Shown: positions 3,912 to 15,550 of the stretch, in pieces | Position numbering within the stretch: the first letter of the stretch is position 1 | How the letters are laid out: the number at the start of each line of letters is the position of its first letter | Sequence record: PQ231202.1 | Strand: one strand, 5' to 3' | Origin: Escherichia phage BSBP01 | DNA: 54,030 bases | The notes under the pieces: generated by a model | What the model was told of the DNA's origin: nothing | Databases searched by the model: none | The model's input: only the letters and a program-made list of their open reading frames with translations | Program-made: the position numbers and the translations under genes

Positions 3912-4460
3912 AGGAACTCTCCAATTTTCGATTCAGTGTTTGTGACTTCTCTTCTCATCTTTTGGCCCATGAAACAGGCCACAGAGTTGCGAAAATAGCC
4001 CTGTTTTAGGGCCATAGTCCAACCGTTTGTGTCAATTCTGGATAACTGCATTGGCGAAGGGTTACTCCCGTTAGGGTGCGGCCTACGCATCATATCTGCA
4101 TAGCAGCCTGGCAAGCTGCGGAGGCCACAGAGGCTTTGCAACCCTTCCCAATACATTCACCCAATCCACCTGCTTTGGCATAGCTGGTGGCGCGGTTTTG
4201 TGCGGATTATGCCACTCTAAGCCCTGTTTGTCCGACTTCCTCAGAGCACCAGCAGCTTGTGGCACAAACCTATTTTCGAATGACTAACATAAGCATGAGG
4301 CACAACCCTCTAATTATTCAGCCCTAACAGCTTGCTTATTTAGTTCCAATTCATCCCAATACATCGCCTATAACAAGTGAATAGCTTTTCTGCGAAGAAG
4401 TATTCCGGCCCTTTGGCCTATGTTAAAAAGATAAATGTATATGATGGAAACATTCCATCT

Positions 4461-4550
4461 TGAAGTTCCCTCGCGCAATCGGAAGGACTCGAACCTTTCA
4501 CTCCACCCTTGTGCACAGGGCTTCTACCCAGACGATATGGAAGGAACTTC
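4461..4550 (-). ncRNA. tRNA-like structured element (non-canonical; possibly degenerate tRNA)
   Basis: Minus strand carries a T-arm-like AAAGG-TTCGAGT-CCTTC, an anticodon-like hairpin GCCCT-GTGCACA-AGGGT and a closing stem GAAGTTC/GAACTTC, but spacing is not canonical. Confidence 0.2.
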
Positions 4551-4564
4551 AATGATGTTGTCTC

Positions 4565-4589
4565 TTCAATTCCAACTAATGTTTCAGAA
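4565..4589 (-). promoter_or_regulatory. Copy 2 of conserved promoter-like motif
   Basis: cttcaattccaactaatgtttcagaa. Confidence 0.3.
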
Positions 4590-4681: not shown

Positions 4682-4706
4682 GCCTTTCTTCCCTAAGAGG
4701 TCAGAA

Positions 4707-4730
4707 TCAAATTCTACTAATGTTTCAGAA
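4707..4730 (-). promoter_or_regulatory. Copy 3 of conserved promoter-like motif (variant)
   Basis: tcaaattctactaatgtttcagaa. Confidence 0.25.
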
Positions 4731-7173: not shown

Positions 7174-7878
7174 TTACAGCTTCTTGATAAGCTCTGCGGA
7201 TTTGCTTGCAGCAACTTTCATTTCATCGCGTGCGGCTTTAGAGATTGATGCCTTGTCCACGCGAATATTACAGTTACCAACTGCAATCTTGCCATCTTCT
7301 GTTGGCGGAAGCTGAGTTAACTCCAGCATTTGCTCTAGCTTTTGCAGAAGAATGCGTTGTGCTTCGATTGCATTTTGAATATTTAATGTTTCCATTACTG
7401 CTCTCACCTTTCTTGAGAATGTTCCAGTTAGTGCCAGGCGTACTTGCAAACCTTTGACGCCAGCATAGTCCACATTCACTTTATTGGCTGGCGAATGTGG
7501 ATGTTTGTACACGTTTGTTACAGTTGCCCAATTGCCATTTACCCAAATAACATCGCCAACTTCCACATCTTTTCCGAGAACATCTTCTTCATCGGATATT
7601 TCCTGCTTCTTGAACTCCTCCACAGGAAGGAATACTGGATTTATTTGGTTAGGGAACTCAATTGTTGGGGTTTCCAAGGCTGGTGGTCTGTCAAGCAACT
7701 TGACTATACGACCAAGTTCAAAATTAAAGTACCCACCAGAATATTGCAGTTGAACTACATCACTAAATCGAAGTATATTTACAATTAAATATTCTCTGTT
7801 GTTATAGACTAATACATCACCAGTTTTAACCAGATTGGCTGGTATTTCGACAACCTTAGTTCCCATGATATTCCTCAC
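7174..7878 (-). CDS. Hypothetical protein
   Basis: 234-aa ORF. Confidence 0.55.
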   Translation of the reverse strand: MRNIMGTKVVEIPANLVKTGDVLVYNNREYLIVNILRFSDVVQLQYSGGYFNFELGRIVKLLDRPPALETPTIEFPNQINPVFLPVEEFKKQEISDEEDVLGKDVEVGDVIWVNGNWATVTNVYKHPHSPANKVNVDYAGVKGLQVRLALTGTFSRKVRAVMETLNIQNAIEAQRILLQKLEQMLELTQLPPTEDGKIAVGNCNIRVDKASISKAARDEMKVAASKSAELIKKL

Positions 7879-7987
7879 GCATTACTGCACAGTGTTTGCA
7901 AACCCAAATGGTTACATAATCGTTTTCGTGTGAAATTTCCCAATTATGTAGCCCTATAAAACATAAGATTTTCATAGGGCATCTCTA

Positions 7988-8365
7988 TTAGAACGGAATG
8001 TCGTCGTCGAAGTCTTTCGGCTCGTTCGGGTTGTAGTTGCTATTCTTCGTCTGTTGCTGAGCAGGTGCTTGCTGTTGTGCAGAAGGTTGCTGGCGTGGCT
8101 GTTGCTGTTGAGCGGCAGCTTGAGGTTGAGCTTTGGCTTTAGCTTTCTCTTCACGCTTACGCATCATTTCATCAACTTGTTCCTGAGTCATGATGGTGAG
8201 TTCCAATGAGGTAAATTCGGTGTTGCCAGCTTTCTTATTCCAGCCAGACACCCAATACCAGATACCTTCTACGTTAATGCGACCACGAACATCTGGATGA
8301 TTTTCAGCTTTCTTGAAGCTGTTGTTGCCCAGAATACCAGTGTTTAAATCGTTGAATTGTGCCAT
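7988..8365 (-). CDS. Small SSB-like protein ending in the host SSB tail motif DFDDDIPF
   Basis: N-terminal about 60-aa domain, Gln/Ala/Pro-rich linker, C-terminus DFDDDIPF matching the E. coli SSB tip as recalled. Confidence 0.55.
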   Translation of the reverse strand: MAQFNDLNTGILGNNSFKKAENHPDVRGRINVEGIWYWVSGWNKKAGNTEFTSLELTIMTQEQVDEMMRKREEKAKAKAQPQAAAQQQQPRQQPSAQQQAPAQQQTKNSNYNPNEPKDFDDDIPF

Positions 8366-8437
8366 GATTAATTTCTCTTTAAGTTAATTACAGTTTAAGT
8401 TTCAGTGACATTGCTAACCACGGAATAGCTTTGTCTC

Positions 8438-8458
8438 TCTTCAAATCCAACTAATGTT
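8438..8458 (-). promoter_or_regulatory. Copy 4 of conserved promoter-like motif
   Basis: cttcaaatccaactaatgtt, about 75 nt upstream of the SSB-like gene. Confidence 0.3.
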
Positions 8459-8499
8459 AGATTAATCATGGACACCTACAAGAGATGCCCATTGTTAAT

Positions 8500-8733
8500 T
8501 TAACGAGTCAGTTTGTCAAAGTACCACATATCTTTGGTAATCCACTCACCGCTTGGTGATTTAATGTAGCAACTACCATTGATTGTGTATTTGAACTCTG
8601 CTTGCTGCAATTCTGCAAAGGTTTTGCATTCATATTTGTAAACAAAGTATGTAGGCAGTCCAATGACAACCAGAACGGACAGCAACATTAGTACGAAAGG
8701 CACTACAATATCTTTCATAACCCAATTCATCAT
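8500..8733 (-). CDS. Small membrane protein
   Basis: N-terminal TM segment VVPFVLMLLSVLVVIGL. Confidence 0.4.
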   Translation of the reverse strand: MMNWVMKDIVVPFVLMLLSVLVVIGLPTYFVYKYECKTFAELQQAEFKYTINGSCYIKSPSGEWITKDMWYFDKLTR

Positions 8734-12323: not shown

Positions 12324-12340
12324 TTCACATGCAACTAATG
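12324..12340 (-). promoter_or_regulatory. Copy 5 of conserved promoter-like motif (variant)
   Basis: ttcacatgcaactaatg. Confidence 0.25.
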
Positions 12341-13238
12341 ATAAATGGACATGCTTAATTGCAACTAACTCATCTGCCAAATAGACGAATTTTGTCACAA
12401 TTAAACATGCGTCATTAATTACAGGTTTACTCCCATCTTGGAATGTATTTGGCACATTAAGATTGGAGCAAGTAGGTACGGAAAACCGACCATGTACAGC
12501 ATAATAAAACAAATTAAATAAAGGGTTTTATCCCAATATTGTCACAATATTACATGCGATGATAAAGCCTTCGCTTGGCTGGAAGCCAGTATTCATGCGG
12601 GTTGCAAGAATATTGGGTCAATACTGATACAGCTATTACATGCGAAATTGGCACAAATACTGTTACAAAATTAACATGCCAGATTGGTAGACGATTGTAT
12701 CTTCGAGGTGATTAGTCCTCTAACAATTCTGCCACATTCCAACATGCCAATTTGTAGCAATATTTACATGCCATACTGCGACGCAATTGTCACAATATTT
12801 GTTGCTCAAAATCGGGGCGGCTTCTGCGTGTAAACGAGAGGCTTTGCTCCGACTCTTCTCTTCTTTCGAATTCTGATTGAAAGAAAGAAGCATGTCCAAA
12901 AGTTCCAGTCTTGTAAAAGTTATCTCCCGGCTTGTGGGTGGGCCTTGATAATAGGAGTAACAGGTTGTCCGCTATTTTGTGCACTGAGCTAGGATTGAAT
13001 CCAGATTGCACTTTACTAGGTGGCGAACCAAGATTGAAACTAATAGACATGCTATAGGTGAAGTACAAGTTTCGAAGTATATAATCCTACTCTTTGCCAT
13101 GGTTGCTGGAACTATGGGTAGCTAATCCAGGGAGTTCGACAATTGCCACATTGCCACAACACTTTGACTCAAGCTGTCATGCTGAATGTTTCTAGAATGA
13201 TTCAACATTACATGCGGAATATTTATCCGTATTCTTTT

Positions 13239-13258
13239 ACTTCACATCCAACTAATGT
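13239..13258 (-). promoter_or_regulatory. Copy 6 of conserved promoter-like motif
   Basis: cttcacatccaactaatgtc, just downstream of the RNAP gene. Confidence 0.3.
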
Positions 13259-13361
13259 CGAATATTGAAACAATATTACATGCAGCAATATTGCTTGAAT
13301 ATTGGGATTTAGTTGTTGATGCACAAGAATAGGGCCAGTGTTTCCACCAGCCCCGTTTCTC

Positions 13362-15368: not shown

Positions 15369-15384
15369 TTCACTTCCAACTAAT
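15369..15384 (-). promoter_or_regulatory. Copy 7 of conserved promoter-like motif, about 70 nt upstream of the RNAP gene
   Basis: ttcacttccaactaat. Confidence 0.3.
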
Positions 15385-15550
15385 ATCACAAACCTGTGCC
15401 ATTGTTACAACAGCACGGAGACTTTGACCTTGACCCATAAGCGAAGCGCCTAACTTGGTGTTGTTTGAAAGCCGATAGGCTGTAGGAAAAAGTTGGAGTA
15501 GGGACCGTATTTAAGTCCGATAGGACGTTGGGCTTCCCCTCCCCGCTGGC

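Follow-up and report, generated by a model that had tools for sequence, protein, structure and literature searches.

The open reading frame on the minus strand at positions 7988-8365 of the window (the whole stretch of 54,030 nt from Escherichia phage BSBP01, PQ231202.1) probably encodes the phage's own SSB (a protein binding to single-stranded DNA), built on a plan other than that of bacterial SSBs, in which a non-OB domain is combined with the hub peptide of the host. The sequence, architecture, conservation and genomic context of the protein, its lack of similarity to OB folds and its predicted topology were observed. The coding sequence is complete, with an ATG start and a TAA stop (7988-7990), and specifies 125 aa (14.3 kDa). 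According to AlphaFold and conservation, residues 1-60 (8186-8365, minus strand) constitute the core domain of the family, a four-stranded antiparallel beta-meander, and in one subfamily only, strand 4 is followed by a charged alpha-helix (MTQEQVDEMMRKREEKAKA; residues 61-79, 8129-8185, minus strand). Residues 80-117 (8015-8128, minus strand) make up a Gln/Ala/Pro-rich linker, predicted to be disordered from its pLDDT and composition, and residues 118-125 (7991-8014, minus strand) form the tip DFDDDIPF, in which every residue agrees with the C-terminal end of E. coli SSB.

Comparison with the translated chromosomal ssb of E. coli, which ends in ...SNEPPMDFDDDIPF before the stop, revealed that the phage protein ends in ...YNPNEPKDFDDDIPF (also given as ...NPNEPKDFDDDIPF, then TAA). 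BLASTP aligned no more than the two tails, with 9 of 10 positions identical, including all of the last eight, so that the host tip DFDDDIPF, recognized from the letters in an earlier, sequence-only reading of this DNA, was borne out. By our estimate, an exact C-terminal match of eight residues is expected by chance at ~1e-9 for ~80 genes, and a six-frame scan of the window found no other ORF with an acidic [ILVM]-P-[FWY] or acidic-aromatic end. In a phmmer search against PDB sequences, the linker and tail alone aligned, to SSB 7f2n. As in bacterial SSBs, a disordered linker (pLDDT <50 for residues 83-112) leads to DDDIPF and a free C-terminus, the stop codon following directly. The tip is also kept across the family; 101 of 149 representatives have an acidic-[ILVM]P[FWY] end, as do 91 of the 119 proteins from a second search, DDDIPF being the commonest ending. 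At the DNA level, likeness to E. coli ssb was confined to the ~27-35 nt coding for the tip. Recent capture of the 3' end of a host ssb was considered and rejected, since likeness to chromosomal or plasmid ssb stops at these 27-35 nt, with marginal E-values.

Fold prediction gave a folded N-terminal domain followed by a low-confidence segment and the tip. AlphaFold2 modelling of the full protein with 30 orthologues gave four strands and a helix, with very low confidence for residues 83-112, and modelling of residues 1-80 with 92 diverse sequences gave a beta-beta-beta-beta-alpha arrangement with a mean pLDDT of 89.7. The predicted strands span residues 10-14, 26-32, 35-46 and 49-58 (pLDDT 91-96), and the helix residues 61-79. 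The three parts proposed in the sequence-only reading, an N-terminal domain, a Gln/Ala/Pro-rich linker and the tip, thus agree with AlphaFold and composition, although the domain, put there at 60 aa, has a folded part of ~80 residues (~60 of beta-sheet plus the 19-residue helix). Alignment of 92 family members showed G10, N15, K18, P24, G28, G34, W38, W42 and S53 to be invariant and Y4, D5, N8, H23, D25, S40, K44 and F51 to be nearly so, and this N-terminal domain is the best conserved part of the protein family. Of the 149 representatives, 29 contain the helix motif MTxEE..K, and it is missing from all 119 short relatives. The linker lacks Gly and varies between orthologues in both length and sequence. 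The 60-residue core is not strongly basic, with a pI of 6.5 against a family median of 8.0.

Several lines of analysis indicated that the N-terminal domain is not the usual OB fold, as judged from profiles and the predicted model. A Pfam search of the ORF gave no match to PF00436 even at E<=10. NCBIfam SSB models aligned through the linker and tail only and far below their cut-offs (TIGR00621: 23.6 bits against a cut-off of 53.95, over linker and tail only). Profile comparison by hhalign gave a probability of 0.3% for the domain profile against one canonical SSB and of 0.2% against an alignment of 16 diverse phage and bacterial SSB OB domains; the score in the latter comparison (10.3) equalled the mean of column shuffles (10.3 +/- 2.1) and was reached by 89 of 200 shuffles, that is, at chance level. 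In addition, the helix of the model comes after the last strand, and not, as in the OB fold, between strands 3 and 4. Pfam, hhalign and AlphaFold fold prediction therefore all failed to show the full canonical OB fold of SSBs, which according to the sequence-only reading would make this simply an ordinary phage-encoded SSB. A half-OB arrangement, suggested by eye as either a first half (strands 1-3 plus helix) or a strand-4/strand-5 hairpin like those of E. coli SSB, was rejected on the chance-level calibrated hhalign result.

It is unlikely, in view of these data, that the protein is an ordinary OB-fold SSB so highly diverged or truncated that AlphaFold and profiles both missed it, for example a half barrel completed by oligomerisation. 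Such divergence would account for the collinearity of linker and tip with bacterial SSB, and NCBIfam SSB models do align residues 40-125 to strand-4/strand-5, linker and tail (E to 4.6e-7, far below cut-offs), but these scores stem mainly from the low-complexity linker and the tip. By eye, HPDVR, SGW and TEFTSLELTI-MTQEQVDEMMRK resemble DPEVR, ESW40 and a 22-residue stretch of the E. coli protein, and a second BLASTP HSP against E. coli SSB covers this similarity with E=1.6. A 2016 global survey of viral replication proteins also describes sequence-based detection of OB folds as notoriously difficult (PMC4889955). Against this stand the missing PF00436 match at E<=10, the hhalign results against the single SSB (0.3%) and the 16-sequence OB alignment (0.2%, at the shuffle mean), and a model that is a simple four-strand meander with the helix last.

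The nearest folds to the domain model appeared to be ssDNA binders, and its best fold and profile matches were the PC4/Sub1 transcription coactivators. According to a review (PMC7549692), the PC4-like group consists of small beta-beta-beta-beta-alpha units that engage single-stranded nucleic acid either as dimers or through tandem repeats, and the predicted phage model (mean pLDDT 89.7) has this topology, sharing its plan with the PC4-like, Whirly and Pur-alpha proteins (human PC4 CTD, MoSub1, T5 PC4-like 4bg7, BPSL1147, YdbC/DUF2128). The hhalign probability was 48% for the domain profile against human PC4 and 70-76% against an alignment of 16 PC4 sequences (58-76% over a wider set of runs), with a score of 28 that none of 300 column-shuffled PC4 alignments reached (10.0 +/- 2.3, maximum 19.5). 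The aligned register (phage 25-38 on PC4 76-89) pairs the family motif PD[YF]KGx[IV]N[IV]xGxEYW with RDFKGKVLIDIREYW of PC4, a segment that also resembles the broader family motif PD[YFV][KR]Gx[IV]x[IV][DE]GxxYW and that on our numbering includes F77 and W89, residues in contact with ssDNA. However, this register conflicts with the strands of the model, in that the turn between phage strands 2 and 3 falls halfway along PC4 strand 3. Since alignment and AlphaFold model disagree on individual strands, PC4 homology is unproven, and we describe the predicted domain as PC4-like in topology and possibly homologous, not as a member of the PC4 family. Single-domain and tandem-domain versions occur in both the PC4-like superfamily and the phage family; the PC4-like unit is completed by a helix, whereas most phage-family members have none. 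Pfam PC4 (PF02229) gave no match in the ORF, Foldseek against the PDB returned nothing significant, and no solved relative was found by sequence. Shiga toxin B, the best match of the domain profile (E=0.025), was taken as chance. To our knowledge, no PC4-like protein with a bacterial SSB linker and tip is known.

Bacterial SSBs (E. coli Ssb; PF00436, TIGR00621) follow the same three-part logic of DNA-binding domain, disordered linker and acidic tip as the phage protein, and the expected role, ssDNA coating and recruitment as a hub, is also the same. In addition to the last eight residues, the E. coli protein shares with it NEP upstream of the tip. In contrast, the bacterial DNA-binding domain comprises ~112 aa and the predicted phage domain ~60-80, the phage linker is Q/A/P-rich without glycine, and nucleotide homology to E. 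coli ssb does not extend beyond the tip codons. T7 gp2.5 and the SSB of HK620 similarly carry an acidic C-terminal tail ending in Phe that mediates protein contacts, and their genes, too, belong to a T7-like replication module or adjoin that of a recombinase; however, they are OB-fold proteins with tail sequences of their own (HK620 NDYPPF), whereas the phage protein is predicted to be non-OB and has the exact tip of the host. The tail of HK620 SSB is required by Sak4 (PMC5928155), so that a phage SSB tail recruits its cognate recombinase, and T7 polymerase and helicase bind the gp2.5 tail. A further likeness was to DUF736 (PF05284), which gave sub-threshold matches in 24 of 92 family members (best E=0.0016; none reaches the Pfam gathering threshold of 22.1 bits) and no match in the window protein. 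JGI names several close domain-profile matches 'DUF736 family', and a cluster look-up yielded no further names. No function of DUF736 was found in the literature, and the link explains nothing yet.

Searching 1.84 billion cluster representatives (50% identity clusters) with the domain profile revealed a very large family, with 3413 clusters matching at E<=0.001 and 415 at E<=1e-10, for which Pfam has no model. Members are mostly 65-190 aa long and share the N-terminal consensus YDNTNRGxLFKNDRKxxDxHPDYKGxINVxGVEYWxSAWxK, followed by a short linker. A tandem double domain was found in 17 relatives; this would fit a working unit made up of two domains, like that of Pur-alpha and PC4. With the N-terminal 74 residues as query, relatives appeared in 135 cultured phage records, mostly of Vibrio, Escherichia, Erwinia, Acinetobacter and Yersinia phages; a short relative as query added Burkholderia, Pseudomonas, Microcystis and Alteromonas phages. 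In these cultured phages the relatives are annotated 'SSB' or 'hypothetical', and none was found in the plasmid collection searched. P0053, a representative of 1158 aa, matched profile positions 37-75 in 20 separate places, but by its sequence it appears to be an artefact of translated low-complexity or repeat DNA and not a genuine relative with many domains.

Gene order was analysed for four short relatives in temperate-phage contigs, where distant relatives are 83-90 aa long. Two of the four come immediately after an ERF annealase gene, whose stop codon overlaps their start codon, one follows a YqaJ exonuclease that itself follows a 264-270-aa protein without a Pfam match, and the last follows a 242-aa protein. 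The position next to ERF or YqaJ (three of the four) is, by gene order, the slot of annealase-assisting phage SSBs. In one temperate lineage (L008 5308-5532 and L009 989-1213), the SSB-like gene is directly followed by an Acb2/Tad1-type hairpin-domain gene (PF24729); Acb2 and Tad1 are anti-defence proteins that sequester cyclic-nucleotide signals. The annotated SSBs of Vibrio phage phiVC8 (H49, H100) and Acinetobacter phage SH-Ab 15497 (H60) are also relatives by domain. We take the genomes of these two phages to contain 2-aminoadenine (Z), and if this is true, the family also serves the replication of modified DNA.

The window represents a near-complete phiEcoM-GJ1-like myophage genome (Chaseviridae, Carltongylesvirus), its closest match being phage PO103-1 with 92.8% identity (local 2.5 kb). 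The orthologue in phiEcoM-GJ1 is gp15, a 'putative single-stranded DNA-binding protein' whose note cites similarity to two other proteins; the label on orthologues dates from 2008 and is found on every annotated relative, apparently resting on similarity. The protein also matched PHROG 7364, 'single strand DNA binding protein' (E=2e-38; residues 1-89 against profile positions 1-91), whose functional label is an annotation. Papers on these phages list the gene as SSB from BLAST evidence only (PMC6266442), and the literature searched contained no experimental work on any family member. The GenBank and PHROGs labels may derive solely from the tail and the linker rich in Q. Phage flopper, an annotated relative, encodes T7-like functions, namely a single-subunit RNA polymerase (RNAP), a DNA polymerase of family A, a primase-helicase, a 5'-3' exonuclease and a ligase; the relatives, flopper included, have no second annotated SSB. 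A tblastn search with the OB domain of E. coli SSB found no match in the window. The ORF is thus the only recognisable SSB candidate of the phage, whose genome has a T7-like replication module.

The gene carries putative signals of its own on the minus strand. Some 75 nt upstream of the ATG, positions 8440-8459 hold a phage-RNAP promoter motif (TAACATTAGTTGGATTTGAA); it matches seven annotated phiEcoM-GJ1 promoters, and its position corresponds to 'putative phage promoter 3' of the phiEcoM-GJ1 orthologue. The presence of an own promoter fits a protein required in stoichiometric amounts. From reading of the sequence, AAGAG at 8373-8377, 7 nt before the ATG, is the probable ribosome-binding site. 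An 11-bp hairpin (GCCCUAUGAAA / UUUUAUAGGGC; 7951-7980), detected by RNA folding, begins 8 nt past the stop codon; its energy was -18.8 kcal/mol (z = -4.2), and none of 200 shuffles was equally stable. No U-tract follows it and the intrinsic-terminator scan did not call it; the hairpin may act as a phage-RNAP terminator, a pause site or a 3'-end stabiliser. Scans of the locus for sigma-70 promoters and intrinsic terminators stayed at chance level. The 20-nt promoter motif (consensus ~AACATTAGTTGGATGTGAA, as annotated in phiEcoM-GJ1) has eight copies in the window, all on the minus strand (2382-2401, 2714-2733, 4565-4584, 4706-4725, 8440-8459, 12324-12343, 13241-13260 and 15369-15388), and these mark early/middle transcription units of the phage.

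How the protein binds ssDNA, whether it forms dimers and which partners it has are inferred as follows. The ~60-residue beta-meander, with the helix in the subfamily, would bind ssDNA, probably as a dimer, through exposed aromatic residues (W36, Y37, W38, W42, F51) and basic residues (K18, K19, R27, R29, K44, K45) in a PC4-like manner. The disordered Q/A/P linker would present the acidic tip DFDDDIPF, whose terminal Phe and free carboxylate could enter the pockets normally taken by the tail of host SSB. Phage ssDNA coated in this way would recruit host Pol III chi, PriA, RecQ, ExoI and DnaG; in addition or instead, the partners may be the phage polymerase, primase-helicase and 5'-3' exonuclease, perhaps with the same evolved pocket. 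In either case, the phage protein would compete with host SSB for SSB-interacting partners.

The sequence-only reading had left a choice between a minimal SSB and a decoy that hijacks or titrates host proteins. As a pure decoy, the protein would not coat DNA at all and would flood the cell with SSB tips, drawing repair nucleases, PriA, RecQ and chi off host SSB. That role is improbable in our judgement, as are the outcomes proposed for it, shut-down of host replication and repair or protection of phage DNA ends. The tip is admittedly an exact host copy, the folded domain has a very small size and little basic character, and the early/middle region in which the gene is found also contains, close by, an anti-restriction gene and numerous small ORFs of the takeover type. 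However, it is the N-terminal domain, not the tail, that is best conserved over the 3413 clusters, and its invariant Trp, Lys and Gly fit a binding surface; a mere peptide tether would not need a conserved domain with invariant Trp and Lys. In temperate phages that are unrelated, family members also take the place of the SSB adjacent to annealases and exonucleases, the phage has a T7-like replisome and no other SSB, and the nearest folds are ssDNA binders. Of the two options, the minimal SSB was accordingly the one supported (no OB fold, PC4-like topology, sole SSB candidate, ERF/YqaJ slot). Hijacking survives as a side effect, since some competition with host SSB follows automatically from the exact host tip even for a DNA-binding protein, and it is disfavoured as the sole function by the N-terminal conservation and the recombination-module context.

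The same PC4/Sub1 matches that point to ssDNA binding could instead indicate a PC4-like transcription cofactor, aiding the phage single-subunit RNAP (or host RNAP) at melted promoters and not serving replication. Eukaryotic PC4, the N4 SSB and Drc of N4-like phages would be its models, phage ssDNA-binding transcription cofactors have precedent (PMC7145618), and the phage has its own RNAP with specific promoters. We nevertheless rate this role as very unlikely, because no transcription role is known for the host SSB tip and the family is widespread in phages without a phage RNAP, where it occurs in recombination modules. The roles of transcription cofactor and replication SSB are compatible and not mutually exclusive.

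Host-like acidic tails are frequent on phage SSBs. Orthologues of the gene already bear the label SSB in GenBank and PHROGs, so that its newness is smaller than implied in the sequence-only reading. What is apparently new is the non-OB DNA-binding part, the very large family without a Pfam model and the joining of a PC4-like module to the linker and tip of bacterial SSB. Neither PC4 nor phiEcoM-GJ1, nor any group of this kind, appears in the available part of the 2016 survey (PMC4889955), and the family would, if the assignment is true, add to the viral SSB groups of that survey. Only tentatively do we extend the SSB assignment to a large, Pfam-less family of phage 'mini-SSBs', in which a ~60-residue PC4-like, DUF736-related beta-meander may have displaced the OB fold non-orthologously with the bacterial linker and hub peptide kept; such proteins would serve as replication and recombination SSBs and compete for the host SSB interactome, and the DNA of the tip would perhaps be an HNH homing site.

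If the SSB assignment is true, ssDNA coating and the recruitment hub are evolutionarily separable modules of SSBs, the hub peptide and linker having been joined to a non-OB domain half the usual size. With its 14 kDa, its E. coli tip and a possibly dimeric state, the protein would then offer a convenient minimal tool for studies of SSB-partner recruitment, could be used in better recombineering pairs of annealase and cognate SSB, and could serve as a probe for how defence systems that sense phage SSBs separate self from non-self. Several thousand clusters of proteins labelled 'hypothetical' or resembling DUF736 would also gain a function. If, conversely, the protein does not bind DNA, a widespread database annotation is wrong.

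Two observations concern the neighbourhood and records of the ssb gene. In phage flopper (NC_048845.1), a gene for a 'DprA-like DNA recombination-mediator protein' (4032-4553) lies directly upstream of ssb, and at this position the window has merely a 135-nt intergenic region with the promoter (8366-8500). DprA is an SSB-associated RecA loader, and the position of this gene may be meaningful. A Carltongylesvirus-type ssb region was also present in PP952070.1, the 53.7-kb 'Staphylococcus phage Pel53' (host Staphylococcus hyicus); this host is probably a mis-assignment or contaminant, because all other relatives infect Enterobacterales.

Analysis of family C-termini revealed three orthologue clusters (P0010, P0015 and P0024) with 15 extra residues after IPF, ending in ...FD(S/E)(D/S)IPF-APIGLQEGRRYLHCI before the stop, and phages with this extension may manage without a free tip. 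Alignment of P0024 (L010 2810-3060) with the window (7860-8060, minus strand) showed that the DNA diverges exactly past the IPF codons; P0010, P0015, P0044, P0073 and P0188 also belong to this observation. In another frame, the diverged DNA encodes a 35-residue stretch that by eye resembles an HNH homing endonuclease at its N-terminal end. From these junctions it thus appears that the ssb stop codon has given way to a mobile endonuclease gene and that the tip has been buried, and the conserved DNA of DDDIPF and the stop may be a homing site for HNH endonucleases. Junctions of the form 'IPF-AP...' or 'PF-APEFR' were also found in P0044, which is an OB SSB of the canonical type, and in further members of the family, and endonuclease genes are annotated beside ssb in the records of Shigella phage 2KOFFS, Vibrio phage K292 and Bcep22.
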